20,006 nucleotides of DNA. It comes from Candidatus Hodarchaeota archaeon (GTDB taxonomy: Archaea; Asgardarchaeota; Lokiarchaeia; Sigyniarchaeales; SOKP01). The translations under genes were made by a program, and so were the position numbers. Shown one piece after another: positions 11,285 through 20,006 of this stretch. Every line of letters begins with the position of its first letter. Positions within the stretch are counted from its first letter, which is position 1. Under the pieces are notes generated by a model. The model saw nothing but the letters and a program-made list of their open reading frames with translations. It did no database searches and was not told where the DNA came from. Where the stretch lies: the NCBI GenBank assembly GCA_048886685.1, contig JBHLKM010000019.1, forward strand, positions 1-20,006, written 5' to 3'.

Positions 11285-11354
11285 GCTTACTTAATCTCGG
11301 TTGAATAAAAATTAAACTTATAAAGCAAGCTTTATCAAATCCTTAGACAAAAGG

Positions 11355-11408
11355 GTATAATATATTCTTAGTTAACTGATACAAGTCTATCCATTTATAT
11401 AAATTTAT
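11355..11408 (-). promoter_or_regulatory. Conserved promoter of the 2061-aa adhesin (TATA-like box plus 16-bp element)
   Basis: Same two motifs and same 24-nt spacing as 2979-3032, while the flanks and spacer are diverged. Confidence 0.75.
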
Positions 11409-11771
11409 CTCAAGCTTAGATGAATTTAATTTACATTATCTGGAGTAAGATATGAAATTGTTTTGAAGTATATTAGATTTCTAAATTAGATATTAAGTTA
11501 AATTCAAAATTAAAAAAGATGAATAAAAATAGATTTTGACTAAATAATTTTTACCTCTTTTTGGATTTCTACAATATCCTTCATAGTTTCATCAATATAT
11601 AGTATTATTTTAACAAATTTGTTAAAAAATTATAGTTTTTTCTATTGTTCAATTTTTTAATTTTTTCTAAATTACTAATATAAATTTTAAATATTAAGAT
11701 GATTTTCTATTATCTGTTAAAGCAAGAGCCAAGTTGCGAATATCATATAAAAATTGATTAAGTTTAAAAAA

Positions 11772-12614
11772 ATGAATGAAATTCTAAAAACAGAGAAGAA
11801 GAAGATCCATAGCTTATTTATCCTCAAAGAGACAGGCACTTGCATTTATAGTAGAAATTTTACAAACAAATTTGAAAAAGTAGATCTTGATTTAGTATCA
11901 GGTTTCTTTGCTGCGTTTTTTTCATTTGCAGAGGAGGTCACCTCTGAAAAAATAGAAAATCTTGAAATGGTTAATGTTAGATTACTATTTATATCAAGCA
12001 AGGATGTTTTAGAGGATCCGAAGGAAAATCTTATCTTTTGTCTTATGGCTGATATTGATGAGAATAAGGTGTTTTTAAGGAACAGTTTATTTATGATAAT
12101 GTCGCATTTTTACAATGTCTATGAAGATTTAGTGCCAGATCGTGTAAAAGGGACTCCCAGAACGGTGTGGGATACGAAGAAGGATCATATTGTAATAAAA
12201 AATGATGAATTGAATTCTATTATTGATTCAATTATATCAGGAGAATGGGAAATAGATAGTTATGAAAGTTATTATAAAGAGGTAGAAAATTATCTTCATG
12301 ATCTGATCGCTGAAAATGAGATTTTGGGAGCTGCGCTATTATCTATTACGGGAAAAATTATAAATTCTAGTTTATCACAGAATATATTTGCACGTGCTAT
12401 AAAAGAATTGGAAATTAGACTCCAGATGGGATATTCAGATCTCCCTCTATTAATTTATGTTTTACAAGATGATTGCAAGGTTTTTACCAAAGAAATTGTA
12501 AACAATGAATTTTTAATTCTCCATTTTGACTCTTCAATTCCCTTAGGAATGTGTAATTTAACCTCAACTAAAATAGCAAATACTATTAAGAAATTGTTTA
12601 AAAGCTGGAGTTAA
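11772..12614 (+). CDS. Longin-like + roadblock/profilin-like two-domain protein (Asgard eukaryotic-signature type)
   Basis: The N-terminal IHSLFILKETGTCIYSRNF..DLDLVSGFFAAFFSFAEEV..IENLEM fits the longin pattern. The C-terminal EILGAALLSITGKIINSSL..LILHF..IPLGM fits the roadblock pattern. The ATG at 11772 is preferred to the TTG at 11754. Confidence 0.75.
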   Translation: MNEILKTEKKKIHSLFILKETGTCIYSRNFTNKFEKVDLDLVSGFFAAFFSFAEEVTSEKIENLEMVNVRLLFISSKDVLEDPKENLIFCLMADIDENKVFLRNSLFMIMSHFYNVYEDLVPDRVKGTPRTVWDTKKDHIVIKNDELNSIIDSIISGEWEIDSYESYYKEVENYLHDLIAENEILGAALLSITGKIINSSLSQNIFARAIKELEIRLQMGYSDLPLLIYVLQDDCKVFTKEIVNNEFLILHFDSSIPLGMCNLTSTKIANTIKKLFKSWS

Positions 12615-13077: not shown

Positions 13078-13581
13078 ATGAAAAATTTAGGAAAAGGGTT
13101 TTTAGCACTTTTAATAGGTGTTGGGGTGTTTTTAACTCCAGGTTTGAGCATATTCTCACCTGAGGGGTTTAATGAAGTAGATTTTGAAACTTCTGAAGAA
13201 AAAGAGGAAGGATTAGGTAAAAAAGTTAAACCTAAGAAAATAATAGCGACTATTGATATCGATCCTGATAAACTTAACTTAAAAAGTAAAGGAAAATGGA
13301 TCACTGCTTACATTGAATTACCTATTGAATTCGAATTGATTGATATTGAACTTGATGGAATATTATTAAATGAATTATTATCTCCTAAAGAGACTACTCA
13401 CAAAATAGGAGATAATGATAATGATAATATTCCTGATTTAATGTTAAAATTTGATAGGTCAATTGTGCAAAGTATTGTTGAAGTTGAAGGCTCACAATTC
13501 TGTGAGATTACCATTGAAGGTCAATTAGTTAATGGTAGAAGTTTTAAAGGTAGTTGTGAAATAGAAATATTAGGAATTTAA
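13078..13581 (+). CDS. Small secreted/membrane-anchored beta-rich protein with an acidic Ca-binding-like loop
   Basis: Signal-like MKNLGKGFLALLIGVGVFL, a charged linker, then ATIDIDPDKLNLKSKGKWITAYIELP...IGDNDNDNIPDLMLKFDR. From memory, not checked, this module occurs at the C-termini of prokaryotic extracellular proteins. Confidence 0.85.
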   Translation: MKNLGKGFLALLIGVGVFLTPGLSIFSPEGFNEVDFETSEEKEEGLGKKVKPKKIIATIDIDPDKLNLKSKGKWITAYIELPIEFELIDIELDGILLNELLSPKETTHKIGDNDNDNIPDLMLKFDRSIVQSIVEVEGSQFCEITIEGQLVNGRSFKGSCEIEILGI

Positions 13582-14126
13582 GATTACGGAATAGCAATTT
13601 TATAGAGTGATCTAATATTAAATTTTTTTAATCTCAGTTCACATTAGTTCCTATGAATTGAATAAGTAGGATTGCGGATCTGAAATAGAAGAATCTGCTA
13701 TGGTGATTCTAACTAGTTTGCTTCATTGTATCATAAGCTTTATATAACACTTCCTTTTATTTTGGATTGAATGTCAAATTTAGATTTGAATTGAAATTGT
13801 AAGGATAGAGTAAAGAAACATTAATATAACCTTCAAATAAATTCTTAATCTCTTCAAATCAAGAAAAGATATTCGTTTGATAGTTTACCTATCGTTCATG
13901 AAATTTGATTAAAGAAGTTTCTCATAAAAAATTCATGGCCTTTAATTAAAAAAAGAGTAAAATTTCCCATTTATATATAAAAGCATTAGAGAATTGAGTG
14001 ATAAATAAATTCTTAGAAGTTAGTATTTCATAATTTTTATAGATGAATTTAAATATGTCGTAAAAAGTTCTATCCAAAATAAGATAAATAAGGTGAACAT
14101 CTATTTCAGTATTTAATAAAAATAGC

Positions 14127-14666
14127 ATGGGGTTAACAGAACAATTATCAGATATTAACATTAAAATTATTCTGGCGGATTTGGGTAAAAATGAGGCTCT
14201 TCAACGAGATATCGAAGATAAATTTGGCGCAAATTATAAATTATCAGTGGGCATAGATATTTTAAGAAAATGTATAACGTTTGAGAATGGGCTAAATGGA
14301 AATCTTTCAATATGGGATGTATGTGGAGAAAATATATTTGAAGTAGTTAAAGATTTGTATCGTAAAGAAGACGGAATAGCATTAATTGCTTTTGATCTAA
14401 CAAAAATAAAAACTTATAATCAAATGATCAAATATCTTTCAAAAATTCGTCAATTCAATTTGGAAGAATATCCATATGTATTAATAGGAAATAAGGCATC
14501 CTTTTTAATGAAAGACGGTTTTTTTATGTACTCAGATGACGCCAAAATGCTTGCAGAAAGTGAAGGATGTATTTATCTGGAGACTTCCTCTCAAATTGAT
14601 TTAGATATTGATAAAGCTTTTAACCGATTAGTAAAAATAATCCTGAGACCTAAAGTACTGGCATAA
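14127..14666 (+). CDS. Rab/Ras-like small GTPase fold with degenerate G-motifs (probable pseudo-GTPase)
   Basis: Collinear with Rab-like proteins: KIILAD-LGKN (G1), YKLSVGIDI (G2), LSIWDVCGE (G3), IAFDLT, VLIGNKAS (G4), YLETSSQ..IDKAF (G5). No C-terminal prenylation cysteines. Confidence 0.85.
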   Translation: MGLTEQLSDINIKIILADLGKNEALQRDIEDKFGANYKLSVGIDILRKCITFENGLNGNLSIWDVCGENIFEVVKDLYRKEDGIALIAFDLTKIKTYNQMIKYLSKIRQFNLEEYPYVLIGNKASFLMKDGFFMYSDDAKMLAESEGCIYLETSSQIDLDIDKAFNRLVKIILRPKVLA

Positions 14667-14927
14667 TTGGATAATGTTAAAATAGATAATCATCTTCACA
14701 TATACGCTATCGCAAAAGAAATATATAATAATTTAAAAATTAAATATAAATATGGATTGGAGAGAGTGTTTTACATGGAGAATAGATCATATTTTCAGGA
14801 ACTTCATGAATTTAGGATACTATTAAATAAAGTTGTAATTCCGTTTGAACAATTTTTTAAGTCAGATGAAAAAAATATCTATGGTTCCCAGATTTTGGAT
14901 ATAATTAGCTCTGAAATAGAAACCTGA
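14667..14927 (+). CDS. Hypothetical protein (86 aa)
   Basis: The TTG start directly abuts the GTPase stop (TAA TTG), and the ORF fills the gap to the next gene. No motif recognised. Confidence 0.55.
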   Translation: MDNVKIDNHLHIYAIAKEIYNNLKIKYKYGLERVFYMENRSYFQELHEFRILLNKVVIPFEQFFKSDEKNIYGSQILDIISSEIET

Positions 14928-14956
14928 TATAATTTTTATAAAAAGGGATTTGGGGA

Positions 14957-17548
14957 TTGCGGGAGAGAAGAAATCATATTTTAAGTAATTGCATTAAATT
15001 AGAAAGATTTCTGATATCTCTGTTAGTTATATTTATAATAATAGCAAATCTAACCTCCTATTATTTCGATATCACAAAATTTTCTGAAGAGCTTTATACT
15101 GTTAGAAAAAATGGTTTTCTAAGGACCTCCTCATCTAGTGGTGGAGGTTATATCATGGATTATAATGCATCCTATTCATGGATTGAGATTTCAACAACAG
15201 GCACTCTAATGAATATTTCAAATGAAAATGATGGTTACGAGGTACTTTCTTTTAATAGTGACGGTTGGAATTTTACATACTATGAAACACAATATGATAC
15301 GGTTTATGTTAGCACGAATGGATGGATTAGTCTTACTAATTTAGGAGACACACAATTTAAGTGTGCACCAATACCAGATTTGAGCAACGAAAATATAGAC
15401 TGTGTAGCTTTGCTTTGTAGCGATTTAAATCCCATAAATGGAGGAGAGATATATTATGAATTTCGTGGACTAGCGCCTAATAACTATTTGGTAATAGAAT
15501 ATCGTAATATTTTCAGTGATGACAATAATTACGTTGGAAATTTTGAAGTCATATTTAACCGATCTGGAATGATTAAATTTCAATACCAAAATATTAATTA
15601 TTTAAATCAATATGATGCGATAGTTGGATTGGATCACGGAGATCTGATAAATTACAACATTTATTCAGGAATTAATAAAAATAATTTGCCTTACACAAAT
15701 AAAGCAATAGAATTTACATTTAATGAGATTTCTGAAATTGATTATTCACTTAATGTTTCAATTAACAAGGAATACACTTGGATTGTAGCAGAAATAGATA
15801 ATCTTATGATGAATCAGATTTTTGGTTCGGATTGGGAAAGCACTTATGGAATTTTTACTGATCCTGAGAAATTTACTAAATTTAAAATAAATATAACTGC
15901 CATTATAGAAAATTCAACTCATTGGAATATAAATTATTCCATGTGGAATTGGACTTATAAAGAAAATAATTTTAATAATACACCGGATGGAAATGATCTG
16001 TTAATATTTCGAAAAGAGCCATTAAATTATACATCTCCTCATAATTTAACTCATATTTTTCCATTTTTTATACCAAATCCTATTTTTCATTATCTTAATA
16101 GATCAAATCTTGCTGAATCTTACTCAAGAATAAGTAGTTTTGGAAGTGCTGGGGATTATGTAGAACTAGGAGATATAATAATGTCTTCGACTATAATAGG
16201 GGGTCACAATATCCAATTTGGTAGAAACGCGCATTACAATAAATATGGCATATTAGATTGGATGGATTTTTATTATGTAAATCAATCATGGGAATCTACT
16301 GATAAAAAATCAATTTTCACAATATACAATTTTTTTGAATCATCTAAACCCTCATTTATAGGGGTGAATGAATCTGATATTTATAATTATGGTGTTTTCT
16401 ATAGTGAAAGAAATGCTCCCCAAATACCTTTAAGAAATTATAGTAAAATGCCTAATATATTTAGTTTAAAAATAGATTTTATAGGGGGTTTTGATCCATA
16501 TTTCAATCGTTCTTTAGTTATTATTAATAATTCTGATGCTGCTTCAGCAATAGATCCTTATCCTGCTGGAAAACATCCTGAAATATATTATTTACCCCAA
16601 AATTTGACTAGATTTACTTTGCTAAAGAGGTTTATATTACCAACAGAAATAAATTGGTCTTTACTTGAGTCAATCCGTTCAGATATTATTGCCATTTCAA
16701 ATGGATTTATCATTAGTTTAAATATAATGGACGATATTTTCGAATTTGAGTACACATACACATCATTTGGTTTATTAAATACTTATTCAGAATATTATAA
16801 TGGAAAAGAATATTTCACAGTTAGATTCAATAAATTTAATTACCAATTTGACGATTATGAACCTGACAAAAGGCTGATAATGTTTTTAATCTTCACCGTA
16901 ATAATTGCTTCTGCGGTTGCTGTATCAGGCCCTTCATTTTATTATTATCGGAAAATTTATAAAAGAAAAACTAGGGACATCTCACCTCTATTTGAAGGAG
17001 ATGAGGAAACTTATCAATCCTGGCTTGGACCTTCAGCAAAAGAAATTTTGAATATTATTTCTAATAAAAAGTTAATATTTGACATAATTAACCAGGATGA
17101 ACTTGTTAAAAAAGAAGTAAAATTGACAACCATGAATATTGAAGTTCTGAGAAAAATTGATGCATTAGGTTTTGATGAATATGATAAAAGAGAATTCCTT
17201 CGGGAAATACTTGCTTTATCTCCTAAAGAAAGATATGAAATCATTAGAAATATTATGTCAAGACAAAGTGTAGGGTCAGAACAATTTTCAAAAGAAATTT
17301 TAAGTAAATTGAGTTATAAAGATTTATTACTTCAGATTTTTGATGAGACTACCCCTAGAAAGAAGAGAATTCAATTAGAAAAAATAGAATTAACAATTGT
17401 TTCAGAAAAATTTTTAAATAAGGTTGATGCAATAGGGTTGACGGGAGATAGTAAAATCAAGTTTATTAAAGAAATGCTTGCATTATCTCCTAAAGAAAGG
17501 GAAGAAATAATAAATAACATCTTAGATAAAAAGGAAACTTATAGTTAA
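14957..17548 (+). CDS. Single-pass receptor-like membrane protein: N-terminal signal/TM, NIDO (nidogen)-like domain, further extracellular domains, TM, duplicated cytoplasmic helical module
   Basis: YSWIEIS..WNFTYYETQYDTVYVSTNGWISL..VALLCSDLNP..GGEIYY..LVIEY..NFEVIF..GMIKFQY matches the NIDO-like FxFYG..YxSxNGxxxF..IAxxWxDL..FQxxL pattern. Many sequons. The TM is LIMFLIFTVIIASAVAVSG followed by basic residues. LALSPKER occurs twice. Confidence 0.85.
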   Translation: MRERRNHILSNCIKLERFLISLLVIFIIIANLTSYYFDITKFSEELYTVRKNGFLRTSSSSGGGYIMDYNASYSWIEISTTGTLMNISNENDGYEVLSFNSDGWNFTYYETQYDTVYVSTNGWISLTNLGDTQFKCAPIPDLSNENIDCVALLCSDLNPINGGEIYYEFRGLAPNNYLVIEYRNIFSDDNNYVGNFEVIFNRSGMIKFQYQNINYLNQYDAIVGLDHGDLINYNIYSGINKNNLPYTNKAIEFTFNEISEIDYSLNVSINKEYTWIVAEIDNLMMNQIFGSDWESTYGIFTDPEKFTKFKINITAIIENSTHWNINYSMWNWTYKENNFNNTPDGNDLLIFRKEPLNYTSPHNLTHIFPFFIPNPIFHYLNRSNLAESYSRISSFGSAGDYVELGDIIMSSTIIGGHNIQFGRNAHYNKYGILDWMDFYYVNQSWESTDKKSIFTIYNFFESSKPSFIGVNESDIYNYGVFYSERNAPQIPLRNYSKMPNIFSLKIDFIGGFDPYFNRSLVIINNSDAASAIDPYPAGKHPEIYYLPQNLTRFTLLKRFILPTEINWSLLESIRSDIIAISNGFIISLNIMDDIFEFEYTYTSFGLLNTYSEYYNGKEYFTVRFNKFNYQFDDYEPDKRLIMFLIFTVIIASAVAVSGPSFYYYRKIYKRKTRDISPLFEGDEETYQSWLGPSAKEILNIISNKKLIFDIINQDELVKKEVKLTTMNIEVLRKIDALGFDEYDKREFLREILALSPKERYEIIRNIMSRQSVGSEQFSKEILSKLSYKDLLLQIFDETTPRKKRIQLEKIELTIVSEKFLNKVDAIGLTGDSKIKFIKEMLALSPKEREEIINNILDKKETYS
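17039..17524 (+). repeat. Two ~75-80-aa cytoplasmic repeats
   Basis: KEILNIISNKKLI..KLTTMNIEVLRKIDALG..KREFLREILALSPKERYEIIRNI versus KEILSKLSYKDLL..ELTIVSEKFLNKVDAIG..KIKFIKEMLALSPKEREEIINNI. Confidence 0.9.
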
Positions 17549-17577
17549 TAAGAAAAATAAGAGAGAGACCCCATAAA

Positions 17578-18252
17578 ATGGTAGAAGTCATTGCTAGCAA
17601 TGAACAAACCGTATTAGAAATAATTAATGAATACTTAGATAAGAATAGATTTTTCAGCGTAAATGATATTATCCCCTTTATAAGTTCTAGATTTGCAAAA
17701 TCTGGTATTAATATCAACGTAAATGGTATCAGAACTATTTTAAAATCTCTTGTAGAAAAAAACTTTATAGTAGAAGGATCAAAACTTACTAGAGATGAAA
17801 TACTATTTAATCCTAATAGAAAAAAAATTTATGAGTTTATTCAACAAAATCCAGGAACTCATTTTTATAATATCGTAACTAATTTAGATCTAAATATCCC
17901 CGTAGTGGAGTGGCATCTGAATATTTTAATAAAATTTATGTATATTAGCAAAGAGGAAATTGAGAATATAGTAGCTTATTTCGATGTTAACGTAAAACCT
18001 GAAAGTAGGATGGTAATTTACTTGTTATCAAAAGATAAATGTAAACAAATAATAAATTTTCTTAAGGAAAATCAAGAAGGTATGACAAGATATCAAATTT
18101 CAGAGCAATTAAATATGCATTCAACCACAGTTGCTAAATATACTGATAAACTTAATGAAAATGGTATTCTAACTAAAAAATCTCTGTCGAACAAGACTTT
18201 ATATTTTCTTAACAATGAATATTATGATAAACTTGATCAAAATTTTTTTTGA
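17578..18252 (+). CDS. Multi-winged-helix transcriptional regulator (ArsR/MarR-like wHTH x2-3)
   Basis: NRKKIYEFIQQNPGTHFYNIVTNLDLNIPVVEWHLNIL and QIINFLKENQEGMTRYQISEQLNMHSTTVAKYTDKLNENGIL..YFL are typical wHTH units. The N-terminal ~70 aa also look wHTH-like. Confidence 0.9.
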   Translation: MVEVIASNEQTVLEIINEYLDKNRFFSVNDIIPFISSRFAKSGININVNGIRTILKSLVEKNFIVEGSKLTRDEILFNPNRKKIYEFIQQNPGTHFYNIVTNLDLNIPVVEWHLNILIKFMYISKEEIENIVAYFDVNVKPESRMVIYLLSKDKCKQIINFLKENQEGMTRYQISEQLNMHSTTVAKYTDKLNENGILTKKSLSNKTLYFLNNEYYDKLDQNFF

Positions 18253-18317
18253 TCATGATATACTGAAAAATAAAAATTATCGATCAGTAAATTTCTTTTT
18301 TTCAAATGAAAAAAATG
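18234..18317 (+). terminator. Hairpins and oligo-T tracts at the end of the four-gene cluster
   Basis: tgatcaaaa-tttt-ttttgatca (18234-18255) spans the stop codon, and a T-rich tract with tttttttca-aa-tgaaaaaaa follows near 18296-18315. Confidence 0.4.
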
Positions 18318-18582
18318 AATTTTTCTAAATTCTCAATCGACAAAAAAATCTAATCTATACAACGAAAGGACAGGAGGAATATTAACTGGTTAATAACTAA
18401 TAAAAAATCTCCAGTCTTTTAAGAATCTTTTCTTTTAACTCCAAATCTTTCGATTTTCCTTTCTCTCATGCGAAAAAGCGGAAATTGGTTAATTTCCTTA
18501 ATATTTAAATATGCAACAATAATTTCTTCATTCGACAGAAGTAAAAATAGACATAACTTTTTGAAAAAGATATACATATTTT

Positions 18583-20006
18583 ATGAAGAAAATTAACTTC
18601 AAAGTAAGAATAACGTTAGTGGGGATATTTTTTTTCTGCATCTTTGTGGCAGTAGTCATAACTCAAAATAATTTCTTTAATAGTGAACCCACTAATAAAT
18701 ACCCAAGCAAAGAGGTATCAAATCTTGGTTTGAATGATGTTCCACAAGAACCTGAAAATCTTTCGGCTTATCAAAAGTTCCAAGAATTTTGGACAGATGT
18801 GTATAACCAAGATGCAATTAATTGGAGTTATTCAGATTGGCGGGATTATATAATCCTACAGATATATAATAATACCGAAGAAAATTTAAATAATACAATT
18901 AAAGATGATCCTCTTTTTGAAAATAATATTAATATCTTCACTATTTATGTTATGGGGAAATATAATGGCTCTCTGAGTATTGAAGATATTACGAATTTAA
19001 AAAGTGAGTTAATCCATAATACTGTTAGTATTGGAGATATCTTATTTTTGAAGCATGACGATGCCCAAGTAAGGTTATTAATTTATATTGAGGTAGAATC
19101 ATCACCATCTATGTGGTACATCGCTGATCATTTGGAAATCTATTTAAAATCTGAAAATTCTACTGGAAAATGGTACAATGCATCAGATAATCATTATGTT
19201 AAGGTATTTGACATACCCAATTTAGAATTAGCTGATTCAATCTATACAGATGGGAAATATGAAAATCATATTGTTGGTCCGATAACAATAAATACTAATG
19301 CTATTGAAGAGAATATATCCTTAGTCGCTAAAGTAGATTATTTTCTTAATTTCTTAATGGAGGACTATGTTGCCAGATTAGAATTATTTAATCTTGTTGA
19401 TGATGATGAGCTGTCACCTGAAATTTTATACACATATACAGGCAATTATACTGATGGAAATCCAGGAGAACTTATTATTTCAGCTTTAGATGATTCTGGT
19501 CTTTCTGCTGATCCTAGCGGTACTTATAGTGTTCCAAACAGTTTAGGTTCTCATAATTTTACATTTACTGCCATAGATGCTGATAATGATAGATCTAATG
19601 ATACATTAGAATCTATTAAAGATATTTGGATTAACATTACAGATGATGACGTTTCATTTCCAGAAATTTCTTATATTTATACCGGTGATGGCACTGATGG
19701 AAATCCTGGAGAGCTTATTGTTAACGCTTCAGACATTTCCGGGTTATCTTTAGATCCCAGTGGAACATATCACGTACCCAACACGATAGGAAACCACAAG
19801 TTTGTCTTTACAGCTAGCGATGCGGATGATGACCGGCCTGATGACGTATTAAATACAACTATTACAGTATGGATAAATATCACAGATGATGACATCTCAT
19901 TTCCAGAAATTTCTTATATTTATACTGGAGATGGCACTGATGGAAATCCTGGAGAGCTTATTGTTAACGCTTCAGACATTTCCGGGTTATCTTTAGATCC
20001 CAGTGG
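18583..20006 (+). CDS. Surface protein, 3'-truncated: signal/TM, ~240-aa unique domain, tandem 81-aa acidic Ig/cadherin-like repeats
   Basis: Not in the ORF track. The frame is open from ATG 18583 (MKKINFKVRITLVGIFFFCIFVAVVITQ...) to the edge with no stop in hand translation. Confidence 0.92.
   Translation, partial: MKKINFKVRITLVGIFFFCIFVAVVITQNNFFNSEPTNKYPSKEVSNLGLNDVPQEPENLSAYQKFQEFWTDVYNQDAINWSYSDWRDYIILQIYNNTEENLNNTIKDDPLFENNINIFTIYVMGKYNGSLSIEDITNLKSELIHNTVSIGDILFLKHDDAQVRLLIYIEVESSPSMWYIADHLEIYLKSENSTGKWYNASDNHYVKVFDIPNLELADSIYTDGKYENHIVGPITINTNAIEENISLVAKVDYFLNFLMEDYVARLELFNLVDDDELSPEILYTYTGNYTDGNPGELIISALDDSGLSADPSGTYSVPNSLGSHNFTFTAIDADNDRSNDTLESIKDIWINITDDDVSFPEISYIYTGDGTDGNPGELIVNASDISGLSLDPSGTYHVPNTIGNHKFVFTASDADDDRPDDVLNTTITVWINITDDDISFPEISYIYTGDGTDGNPGELIVNASDISGLSLDPS
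19399..20006 (+). repeat. 243-bp (81-aa) tandem repeat, at least 2.5 copies
   Basis: Units start at 19399, 19642 and 19885 (DDDxxxPEIxYxYTGxxTDGNPGELIxxAxDxSGLSxDPSG...). Copies 2 and 3 are nearly identical in DNA. Confidence 0.95.

Follow-up and report, generated by a model that had tools for sequence, protein, structure and literature searches.

A C-terminal tail module of Lokiarchaeales-like membrane proteins and its linkage to a triple winged-helix protein family

Organization of the locus

The window analysed here, that is, the whole stretch of 20,006 nt from a Candidatus Hodarchaeota archaeon of the Asgard class Lokiarchaeia (contig JBHLKM010000019.1, positions 1 to 20,006), carries the following genes and putative regulatory elements:

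14003..14126, + strand: promoter-proximal block upstream of the pseudo-GTPase gene (putative function)
14127..14666, + strand: pseudo-GTPase gene, an ORF of 179 aa, Rab-derived
14775..14927, + strand: small conserved protein gene, ~50 aa (called as ORF 14667-14927, "86-aa")
14957..17548, + strand: receptor-like membrane protein gene, 863 aa, single-pass, TTG start
17578..18252, + strand: triple winged-helix (wHTH) protein gene, 224 aa
18243..18302, + strand: oligo-T tracts after the wHTH gene, candidate archaeal terminator
18380..18395, no strand: palindrome TATTAAC-TG-GTTAATA, candidate operator
18480..18511, no strand: putative element with the palindrome GGAAATT-GGTT-AATTTCC (18480-18497)
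18583..20004, + strand: repeat surface-protein gene, running off the window

The original prediction described the first four genes as a co-directional cluster with gaps of 0, 29 and 29 nt. The + strand ORFs at 14127-14666, 14667-14927, 14957-17548 and 17578-18252 bear this out, as do both 29-nt gaps, but the 0-nt gap does not stand. The called 86-aa ORF, which starts at the most upstream TTG, is over-extended, its orthologs conserving only ~50 aa from a MEN... start that corresponds to M37 (14775) of the window ORF. An ORF of 49-59 aa with the core motif EFRxxLKKV(I/V)IPFxKFFR lies at the equivalent position in 7/7 orthologous loci (six retrieved by BLAST and aligned; the 53-aa ORF of G019 taken from inspection of the ORF list), and the protein has no family match in Pfam or NCBIfam. 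Judging from sequence, the gene most likely spans 14775-14927 (50 aa) and begins ~108 nt past the GTPase stop, which makes the 0-nt gap an artefact of ORF calling.

The pseudo-GTPase matches the Pfam Ras family (3.9e-22), and its closest PDB sequence matches are Rab1a, Rab22 and Rab14. Compared with a canonical sister paralog (GAAAVGKTS, DIGGQ, NKAD, SAK), its P-loop is 3 residues shorter (ADLGKN) and the other motifs read DVCGE, NKAS and SSQ, the NKxD and SAK motifs thus being lost; the orthologs keep these losses or lose more. This set of motifs no longer allows canonical nucleotide binding.

The order pseudo-GTPase, small ORF, receptor, wHTH protein and surface protein is complete in G015, G009 and G012, G186 has all five genes over two contigs, and G233 has the first four on one contig; in G348 and G019, where the flanks are too short, only the GTPase and the small ORF are visible. 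The four genes of the window's orthogroup are probably one operon. Upstream, the block at 14003-14126 contains TATA-like TTTTTATAGATG / ATTTAAATA (~14033-14055) and AAGGTG ~35 nt before the ATG, and is nearly invariant in an alignment of 7 orthologous loci. The cluster had been said to end in hairpin/oligo-T tracts; the oligo-T part was confirmed, with a T8 at 18243-18250 overlapping the wHTH stop and a T7 at 18296-18302 within TTTCTTTTTTTTCA, a block conserved in orthologs, whereas G+C-rich hairpin terminators were found at 0 sites.

The region between the wHTH and surface-protein genes is conserved as well, with a mean column identity of 76%, so that both regulatory regions are conserved among the orthologous loci aligned. 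The arms of the palindrome at 18380-18395 are kept in 4/5 orthologous intergenic regions (1 mismatch in the fifth) and the palindrome at 18480-18497, just ahead of the surface gene's TATA-like TTTAAATA (18504-18511), is perfect in 3/5 orthologs and partially so in the other 2; the surrounding DNA is very rich in AT, and words of this kind are frequent in it. The surface protein itself carries 81-aa acidic repeats and is secreted or anchored, and its gene follows the wHTH gene in G015, G009, G012 and G186 at 70-74% identity. The neighbouring surface-protein genes had been proposed as regulatory targets because of conserved upstream elements. For the gene directly downstream (18583-), the proposal gains from conserved synteny; the shared elements do not hold up, as those at 2962-2994 and 11338-11370 are duplicates upstream of two paralogous adhesin genes and have nothing in common with 18253-18582. 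The downstream repeat surface-protein gene is therefore the only syntenic candidate target.

The receptor, its tail module and the winged-helix protein

The receptor comprises an N-terminal hydrophobic anchor, an ectodomain, one TM segment and a two-module tail:

15140..15742, + strand: NIDO-like N-terminal ectodomain, aa 62-262 (P0093 link and ESM Atlas structure)
15743..16864, + strand: beta-rich rest of the ectodomain, aa 263-636, sequon-rich, model pLDDT >90
16865..16936, + strand: TM helix, ~aa 637-660 by sequence, model helix 638-651
17108..17278, + strand: tail module copy 1, aa 718-774, hmmsearch 5e-26, model helices 728-769
17375..17545, + strand: tail module copy 2, aa 807-863, extreme C-terminus, hmmsearch 3e-25, model helices 817-861

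In favour of the TTG start, orthologs have an ATG at this very position and their N-terminus is conserved; P0001, the public gene call of 797 aa, has a later start and omits the anchor. N-x-S/T sequons number 20 in the ectodomain versus 0 in the tail, and the basic stretch YYYRKIYKRKTR directly follows the TM helix. About 20 receptor orthologs have an identical two-module tail. In the AF2 model, the pLDDT exceeds 90 in the ectodomain and is only moderate in the tail (26-76). Residues 62-262 share 32% identity (E 5e-13) with a region of P0093 that matches Pfam NIDO at 27.6 bits (cutoff 25), and the ESM Atlas structure reaches a TM-score of 0.84-0.85 to prokaryotic clusters with PF06119 in 54-77% of their members, with a language-model feature similarity of 0.94 to NIDO-annotated clusters; the receptor's own sequence does not match Pfam NIDO even at E up to 1. 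Similarity to the BDI_3050 lipoprotein was found for residues 262-460 (Z 8.8). With these results, all four predicted domain labels (pseudo-GTPase, NIDO-like ectodomain, duplicated tail module and triple wHTH) hold, and Pfam and NCBIfam agree with the prediction in placing no kinase or receiver domain in any of the four proteins.

The tail module is a previously undescribed small helical module of ~55 aa, with three short helices and the motif F-[IL]-x-E-[IM]-L-x-L-S-P-K-E-R (alignment and model). It is almost confined to the window's own order (Lokiarchaeales-like): its profile matches only 315 clusters among 1.84 billion representative proteins, and by Asgard family it occurs in 55/67 genomes of f1 and 5/7 of f2, versus 0/76, 0/28, 0/21 and 0/19 in other families. 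Among the matches listed, it lies almost always a few residues from the C-terminus of proteins of 53-1906 aa, and a single genome can have up to 19 matches. In the window's own genome, only three proteins carry the module, each adjoining a wHTH paralog, while a fourth full-length wHTH paralog is fused to TM segments.

The wHTH protein was modelled by AF2 with high confidence (pLDDT 94, pTM 0.83) as three WH domains. Its near-neutral overall pI of 6.9 and its whole-model Foldseek matches, which include the non-transcriptional tandem-WH scaffolds ScpB (E 8.6e-5), RPC34 (1.1e-4), ESCRT-II Vps22 (4.8e-4) and UFL1-DDRGK1 (3e-3), raise the question of whether it binds DNA. It could instead work as a tandem-WH adaptor, much like ESCRT-II, ScpB or UFL1/DDRGK1, that reads the module as a signal for sorting or modification and links the membrane proteins to the ubiquitin-like system or to trafficking. 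One paralogous module-wHTH pair does lie inside a ubiquitin/E1/E2/JAMM operon (3/3 genomes examined, two genera), the module partner ending in a ubiquitin-like domain, and variants with WH1-WH2 only, lacking the ArsR-like wH3, are still paired with module receptors. However, the scaffold superpositions are poor (TM-score <=0.3, rmsd ~10-13 A), and the individual domains match DNA-binding repressors far better: wH3 (138-224, pI 8.8) aligns with ArsR/SmtB repressors over 87 of 90 residues (Z 14.5, rmsd 2.6 A) and wH2 (73-140) with Fur, MarR and Mlc-type WH domains (Z ~11). The Pfam and NCBIfam matches are all transcription-factor HTH families (in Pfam HTH_24, HTH_HVO_0163_N and HTH_5, the last at 24.9 bits against a cutoff of 22), and neither EAP30 nor Vps25 gives a match at E up to 0.1. 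We consequently regard a non-DNA-binding adaptor as unlikely.

Linkage between module and winged-helix protein

Conserved co-occurrence of the module and the wHTH family, which a gene-neighbourhood survey across Asgard genomes had been suggested to reveal, was indeed found. Among 73 distinct module ORFs, whose loci were picked by module matches alone, a wHTH gene is directly adjacent on the same strand in 57 (downstream in 32, with gaps of -10 to 247 nt and a median of ~26, and upstream in 25), fused in 4, and within 1.5 kb in a further 4; adjacent or fused arrangements thus account for 61/73. In five cases, the flanks of the module ORF are long enough but contain no wHTH gene close by; three of these ORFs encode module-only proteins of 82-95 aa. 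The natural fusions are L090, L091, L096 and L097 in G296 (ectodomain-TM-module-3xWH) and a fifth, independent one, P0242 (multi-pass membrane protein-module-3xWH), such that two independent lineages join module and wHTH through a linker of only ~15-25 aa. A strong wHTH match (E below 1e-40) is present in 61/61 module-positive f1/f2 genomes, and 10/14 module-negative ones are without it. The paralogous pairs also co-diverge, in G296 (r 0.66; 0/2000 permutations as high) and in G068 (r 0.71; 66/2000 as high). Because of this adjacency, fusion, co-occurrence and co-divergence, the functional link foreseen between receptor tail and wHTH protein is strongly supported, and it is probably physical as well. 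We found no published description of this system.

As regulator genes often adjoin their own targets, the wHTH protein might be an ordinary local transcription factor for the neighbouring membrane-protein gene, with a module that serves, for example, oligomerisation or localisation and makes no contact with it. This we consider quite unlikely: the module is the sole feature common to wHTH partners that are unrelated in every other respect (type I, multi-pass, Zn-ribbon and Ubl-ending proteins), the two are fused across short linkers, other paralogs join the wHTH directly to TM segments, and module and wHTH are gained, lost and diverging together.

In its full form, the original prediction envisaged a four-protein complex in which the pseudo-GTPase and the small protein bridge tail and wHTH protein. 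Both genes are conserved, frames intact, ahead of this orthogroup's receptor in 8 genomes from two genera, with short gaps inside the block and a conserved promoter-like region in common. They are nevertheless confined to that one orthogroup (8/119 family genomes), which tells against the dead GTPase as a general adaptor, and no homolog of either lies beside any of the ~65 other receptor-wHTH pairs examined. The only neighbouring Ras-like ORF is weak (E 8e-5, 22% identity; 237 nt upstream of the L117 receptor), which is chance level given ~45 such genes per genome, and the fused forms show that tail and wHTH require no bridge. Such a complex is very unlikely in our view; the pseudo-GTPase and the 50-aa protein would be subfamily-specific accessories outside the core mechanism.

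The pairing of module and wHTH protein thus points to a kinase-free route from membrane to genes. We think it fairly probable that the core is a two-gene cassette, namely a membrane receptor with a docking tail and its cognate wHTH regulator. From the gene content, domain folds, adjacency, fusions, co-occurrence and co-divergence observed, we infer physical docking, DNA binding, a direction of signalling and targets as follows. The input would be the membrane protein, whose outside part varies (NIDO-like and beta-rich here; Ig-like, multi-pass or others elsewhere), and the output would be the triple wHTH protein encoded right after it, with its ArsR/MarR-like domains 2 and 3. The tail module is the presumed docking site that would keep the wHTH protein membrane-bound; certain relatives combine both in a single polypeptide. 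Events at the ectodomain may then change the amount of regulator free for DNA, the likeliest targets being its own operon and the downstream repeat surface-protein gene, with palindromes near its TATA-like box.

Comparison with known systems

Several components have recognizable counterparts. wH3 superposes on whole ArsR/SmtB protomers, although those repressors have one WH domain and the present protein has three in tandem. Eukaryotic pseudo-GTPases are GTPase folds that have lost nucleotide binding, and the protein described here likewise keeps the Ras/Rab fold and remains conserved with G1, G4 and G5 destroyed; unlike them, it derives from an Asgard Rab-like paralog via a 3-residue P-loop deletion. 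The NIDO domain (Pfam PF06119) occurs in nidogen, mucin-4 and many bacterial surface proteins. Receptor residues 62-262 resemble NIDO-annotated prokaryotic clusters, with a transitive sequence link via P0093, but in contrast to Pfam NIDO members the receptor falls below the family model, the comparison being with annotated clusters only.

At the level of the cassette, anti-sigma/ECF sigma pairs similarly combine a variable extracytoplasmic sensor, one TM helix and a small cytoplasmic docking domain with a cognate transcription protein encoded alongside, in many paralogous pairs per genome. The output here would instead be a winged-helix protein, the module resembles anti-sigma domains neither in sequence nor in fold, and the locus has no evident site-1/site-2 protease. 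To our knowledge, archaea have no sigma factors.

CadC, ToxR/ToxS and VtrA/VtrC are membrane-bound one-component or co-component regulators (PMC9214523) whose signal, as proposed for the present pairs, crosses the membrane and reaches a DNA-binding domain with no phosphorelay; like the present pairs, they exist in fused and split forms and constitute fast-evolving, lineage-specific cassettes. Their OmpR-type wHTH forms the cytoplasmic N-terminal part of the TM protein itself, and the second component is periplasmic, whereas here the split is cytoplasmic (tail module and soluble 3xWH protein), with reversed topology and unrelated domains.

Bacillus subtilis has a membrane signal-transduction protein, SdpI, that sequesters the ArsR-type autorepressor SdpR (PMC2910880). 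The present cassette likewise has no kinase and probably unites the genes for an ArsR-like winged-helix regulator and a membrane protein in one operon, the membrane protein being proposed to retain the regulator at the membrane. The SdpR model is the best NCBIfam match of wH3 (6.8e-8), but the score of 32 bits falls short of the cutoff of 100 and the protein is not an SdpR member. SdpI is multi-pass and binds SdpR via its membrane core; in the archaeal, expanded family described here, the corresponding part is a soluble C-terminal module carried by unrelated membrane proteins, and the regulator has three WH domains.

Pairing of the tail module with the triple winged-helix protein

The cytoplasmic tail module of the receptor and the winged-helix protein encoded next to it form a conserved pair. 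The genome that holds the window, as bases 1-20006 of contig C19, is 4.4 Mb in size with ~31% G+C, and its close homologs are publicly named as Promethearchaeota/Lokiarchaeia MAGs. The four plus-strand ORFs from which a surface-to-DNA signalling module had been predicted are present as described:

14127-14666 (+), pseudo-GTPase gene
between 14666 and 14957 (+), small ORF
14957-17548 (+), receptor gene, with two copies of the ~55-aa tail module
17578-18252 (+), gene for the 224-aa triple winged-helix (wHTH) protein

In Pfam, the first ORF matches Ras and the fourth several HTH families; the two ORFs between them match no family. As originally stated, none of the four proteins contains a kinase, histidine kinase or receiver domain recognizable by Pfam or NCBIfam.

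The profile built from the module alignment (A1) scores the two window copies at 83.1 and 79.1 bits in the genome search (E 5.3e-23 and 9.2e-22). We define a cassette as a C-terminal A1 module together with an adjacent or fused triple winged-helix gene; the receptor and the wHTH gene, which lies 29 nt downstream, make up one such cassette. Only three proteins of this genome carry the module—the receptor, a 287-aa multi-pass protein (contig C24), and a 264-aa transmembrane (TM) protein (contig C1)—and each directly adjoins a wHTH paralog, while a fourth full-length paralog (contig C37) is fused to TM segments.

The original prediction had looked to gene neighbourhoods in other genomes for support, and two surveys supplied it, in both adjacency and co-occurrence across genomes. 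In the first, loci were picked by wHTH similarity from 40 related genomes, and in nearly all of them the gene just upstream encodes a type I membrane protein that carries the module; the ectodomains of these proteins are quite different. The second searched 300 genomes of the phylum with A1, independently of the wHTH protein, and matched 55 of the 67 genomes of the window's family and 5 of 7 in a sister family, with none in four other families (0/76, 0/28, 0/21, and 0/19 genomes). Against 1.84 billion representative proteins, the profile found only 315 clusters; among the matches listed, the proteins range from 53 to 1906 aa and the module nearly always ends a few residues from the C-terminus. 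Linkage was counted for 73 distinct module ORFs in loci fetched around module matches. Adjacency to or fusion with a wHTH gene was seen for 61 of them, the gene lying directly downstream in 32 (gaps of -10 to 247 nt), directly upstream in 25, and fused in 4; a further 4 had it within 1.5 kb, 5 lacked it despite adequate flanks, and 3 had flanks that were too short.

Fused proteins run in the order signal peptide, ectodomain, TM segment, basic stretch, module, ~20-aa linker, and triple winged-helix region, and the public protein P0242 is an independent fusion that joins a multi-pass protein of the C24 type to the module and the winged helices. In the two families, a strong wHTH match is present in each of the 61 module-positive genomes and absent from 10 of the 14 module-negative ones, among them all four of one genus. 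Among paralogous pairs within a genome, module identity follows wHTH identity (r 0.66, a value reached in 0 of 2000 permutations), as it does in a second genome (r 0.71; 66 of 2000 permutations), which indicates that cognate parts undergo duplication and divergence together, as a cassette. One more family of the order has a divergent module ahead of a wHTH gene (locus L046), and closed genomes of the sister family contain homologous pairs (L048, L049).

In some genera the cassette has multiplied, with 12-19 module matches in each genome (G296, L087-L101; G068, L107-L116; G191, L117-L124), and the expanded sets include four ectodomain-TM-module-winged-helix fusions in G296 and pairs with a truncated, two-winged-helix partner. 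A Zn-ribbon precedes the module in some tails (L094, also L046). There are also module-only proteins of 82-95 aa that lack a TM segment (L107:5150-5437(-), L118:5133-5381(-), L111:8739-9002(+), and L108:2031-2309(+)); three of these four have no adjacent wHTH gene, and that of L108 has one 379 nt upstream. Such proteins might compete for the regulator or serve as soluble decoys. In 1.4-Mb Asgard genomes of another family (f7), a 1556-aa surface protein (L147:7085-11755(-), L148:6872-11530(-)) carries an LTLSPDERE helix in its cytoplasmic tail (E ~1e-8). We left this module-like tail out of the system because no wHTH gene of the family lies nearby; the resemblance reflects either distant kinship with the module or convergence.

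Architecture of the receptor and its winged-helix partner

The TTG start of the receptor at 14957 is correct: it is preceded by GGGGA, aligns with the ATG of orthologs, and opens a conserved N-terminal hydrophobic anchor. The public call for this gene (P0001, 797 aa) instead uses an internal Met 66 residues further on, leaving out 14957-15154 and with it the anchor. In the predicted structure, an ectodomain modelled with pLDDT >90 (aa 62-640) is followed by one TM helix and a helical tail; 20 N-glycosylation-type sequons fall in the ectodomain and 0 in the tail. Residues 62-262 are NIDO-like by predicted fold, outside the reach of the Pfam model: NIDO (PF06119) gives no match to the window receptor at E up to 1, and matches 4 of 56 receptor homologs (best 3.5e-6). 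The same residues are 32% identical to a region of public protein P0093 that Pfam does score as NIDO, and in the ESM Atlas, where models on both sides are predicted, they reach TM-scores of 0.84-0.85 to clusters with 54-77% NIDO members. The NIDO-like label first given to this receptor is upheld by these two lines of comparison.

The tail consists of two copies of an ~85-aa unit whose core is the three-helix module of ~55 aa, which has an invariant Phe and an invariant Arg (F30 and R42 in A1 numbering). Fold searches with the whole 863-aa receptor returned only TM ~0.07 from Foldseek against the PDB, and a wide fold comparison gave long-helix matches plus one of Z 8.8 for residues 262-460. For the tail (685-863), the ESM Atlas offered no usable feature match and structure matches that were merely generic and helical, and the module profile found no significant relative among PDB sequences (best E 0.064). 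A weak match to an addiction-module component (TIGR02574, 20 bits with an NCBIfam cutoff of 31.9) was considered and rejected; we put the similarity down to a common LSxxER helix.

The wHTH protein is predicted with high confidence (pLDDT 94) to contain three winged-helix domains (WH1-WH3), in agreement with its original description as a triple wHTH regulator. The third (aa 138-224) superposes on the ArsR/SmtB repressor 6j05_B with Z 14.5 and rmsd 2.6 A over 87 of 90 residues, in an alignment that covers whole ArsR/SmtB repressors, the winged-helix fold together with its flanking helices; HTH_5 of Pfam is matched at 24.9 bits (cutoff 22). The second (aa 73-140) superposes on Fur/MarR/Mlc-type domains with Z ~11. 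Whole-chain Foldseek matches are to other tandem winged-helix proteins at low TM. ESCRT-II (2zme_A) was hit at E 4.8e-4, yet with TM 0.25 and rmsd 13 A, and no EAP30 or Vps25 match was found by Pfam at E up to 0.1. The score for the SdpR autorepressor family (NF033789), 32.3 bits, lies well below its curated cutoff of 100. Truncated WH1-WH2 variants are still paired with module receptors, and more distant matches cover WH2-WH3 alone, in ~420-aa frames; WH1 is the best candidate for the domain that would bind the module. The labels given in public annotations are 'hypothetical protein' or 'winged helix-turn-helix transcriptional regulator'.

Start codons vary among the orthologs. Where the window has the ATG of the wHTH gene, two orthologs (G015, L003:1503-1510; G009, L004:1503-1510) have ATA-ATT after GGGGAG, and GTPase orthologs in G015, G009, and G348 have ATA at the window's ATG position (columns ~388-392 of A5, the alignment upstream of the GTPase gene). 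Each of these reading frames stays open and is conserved, and no canonical start precedes it, a pattern that suggests non-canonical initiation in some congeners.

The pseudo-GTPase and the surrounding DNA

The first protein of the cluster is a Ras-family member in fold and sequence (Pfam Ras, E 3.9e-22, 79 bits against a cutoff of 21.6), and its nearest PDB sequences are Rab1a, Rab22, and Rab14 (E 2.7e-16 to 3.7e-16). Its closest relative is a sister paralog that most genomes of the family possess (C13:101656-102180 in the genome holding the window) and whose motifs are canonical (GAAAVGKTS, T, DIGGQ, NKAD, SAK). In the window protein, the G1 P-loop, GxxxxGK[S/T], is replaced by ILADLGKN, a 3-residue deletion relative to GAAAVGKTS with Ser/Thr changed to Asn; G4 (NKxD) reads NKAS, G5 (SAK) reads SSQ, and G3 (DxxGQ) reads DVCGE, which retains DxxG and has Glu for Gln. 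The deletion, ADLGKN, DVCGE, NKAS, and SSQ are common to the window protein and its orthologs, with variants: the P-loop Lys is Glu or Asn in some, G4 is mostly NKPC, NKSS, or NKSK (KKPF in G186), and G012 and G019 also change the G3 Asp to Asn. By its motifs, the protein is a conserved, Rab-like pseudo-GTPase, as first labelled, with G1, G4, and G5 lost relative to the canonical paralog; it documents in archaea a clear case of a pseudo-GTPase that arose from a Rab-like gene.

Of the 119 genomes of the family, 8, from two genera, have an ortholog of the pseudo-GTPase gene, with the small ORF after it in every case. At 7 orthologous loci this ORF encodes 49-59 aa with a conserved MEN... start ~110-120 nt past the GTPase stop, and that start corresponds to M37 of the window's 86-aa ORF. 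Hence the true gene is most likely 14775-14927, and the 0-nt gap once reported between the two genes is an artefact. The small protein retains a core of EFRxxLKKVIIPFxKFFR and belongs to no known family in Pfam or NCBIfam. The dead GTPase had been cast as an adaptor of the signalling module, a role that the comparison does not favour: no homolog of it or of the small ORF was found beside the other receptor-wHTH pairs surveyed. The L117 receptor has one weak Ras-like ORF (E 8e-5) 237 nt upstream, about what chance predicts at ~45 such genes per genome.

Nearby, a 286-aa ORF (11754-12614, +) has only weak longin/roadblock-type matches (Sybindin 0.055, MglB 0.0043, Trs23 0.52), and its paralogs include copies on C8 and C12. 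In G009 a roadblock-looking 245-aa ORF lies upstream of the GTPase gene, and in G012 an ORF weakly related to the 286-aa one (E 6.6e-5); a GTPase-partner relationship is possible. Between the 286-aa ORF and the cluster, a secreted-looking 167-aa protein (13078-13581, +) has a 57% identical paralog on C22 and no synteny in orthologous loci.

The full order of GTPase, small ORF, receptor, wHTH, and repeat surface-protein gene is kept in G015, G009, and G012; one contig of G233 carries the first four, two contigs of G186 together carry all five, and G348 and G019 show GTPase and small ORF within short fetched flanks. DNA upstream of the GTPase gene is nearly invariant in 7 loci and contains TATA-like words. 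The 330-nt spacer ahead of the surface-protein gene has a mean column identity of 76% and contains an oligo-T block, the palindromes TATTAAC-N2-GTTAATA and GGAAATT-N4-AATTTCC, and the TATA-like TTTAAATA:

18380-18395 and 18480-18497, conserved palindromes, candidate sites for wHTH binding

The cluster had been said to end in hairpin/oligo-T tracts; oligo-T tracts do follow the wHTH stop, and no hairpin terminator was found. The scan behind the latter result, for sigma-70 promoters and hairpin terminators, is ill-suited to archaea and gave 34 sites against 38 expected, which is no enrichment, and 0 terminators. The layout fits a four-gene operon followed by a surface-protein gene with a separate, possibly regulated promoter. 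Four upstream elements had been singled out for tests of wHTH binding, and no motif common to them emerged: only two adhesin promoters are alike, as paralogous duplicates. They share a 33-nt element (2962-2994 and 11338-11370, 82% identical) upstream of two large paralogous adhesin genes; the element is a duplicated promoter region, unrelated to the spacer after the wHTH gene.

A ubiquitin-like operon and the signalling reading

One paralogous pair has a different setting. In the genome holding the window (C1:127668-133021, L053), as in G005 (L051) and G296 (L092), a wHTH paralog is followed by the 264-aa module protein, which comprises two TM segments, the tail module, and a C-terminal ubiquitin-like (Ubl) domain, and the pair sits within a ubiquitin-like operon with two Ubl genes, a ThiF-type E1, a UBC E2, and a JAB/MPN protease. 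The arrangement is kept in all three genomes examined, from two genera. A pair in a Ubl/E1/E2/JAMM operon, with a module partner that bears a terminal Ubl domain, suggests the main rival reading, namely that the triple winged-helix protein does not act on DNA and is an adaptor linked to the ubiquitin-like system. The same facts—the operon in 3/3 genomes and a membrane partner ending in Ubl—led us to a bolder proposal, that a large family of transcription factors in Lokiarchaeia is tethered to the membrane and is released or turned over under the control of their ubiquitin-like system; we regard this as improbable. If true, the archaea most closely related to eukaryotes would have a prokaryotic counterpart of the ubiquitin-dependent activation of eukaryotic membrane-bound transcription factors (Spt23/Mga2, Nrf1). 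A winged-helix protein and a membrane-anchored Ubl protein in a Lokiarchaeial ubiquitin operon bear on the wiring of ubiquitin signalling before eukaryotes.

Our preferred reading is that of a receptor-to-regulator system. Sensors vary and the small cytoplasmic module stays constant, its partner is a cognate ArsR-like protein, the two occur both split and fused, and the family has expanded in particular lineages; such a pattern is the signature of transmembrane signalling with a direct, phosphorylation-free output. From this pattern we read the module as a docking site that would hold the wHTH protein at the membrane. The ectodomain would set, through release or capture and with or without proteolysis, the amount of regulator available to DNA.

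How Asgard archaea sense their surroundings is little known, and few of their many surface proteins have been linked to gene control. The analysis defines a lineage-specific, kinase-free receptor-to-regulator cassette with a new putative docking module, variable sensors, and constant output, which reaches up to 19 module matches per genome, occurs naturally in fused and split forms, and supplies concrete protein pairs and DNA regions for testing. The literature searched returned no description of the module, of the module-wHTH pair, or of wHTH and TM-module-Ubl genes in a Lokiarchaeial ubiquitin operon. The closest working analogues are SdpI/SdpR (PMC2910880), anti-sigma/ECF sigma pairs, and the CadC/ToxR/VtrA-VtrC systems (PMC9214523), none of which is homologous to the cassette; the principle of a membrane-tethered transcription factor is known, and the parts and architecture described here are new.
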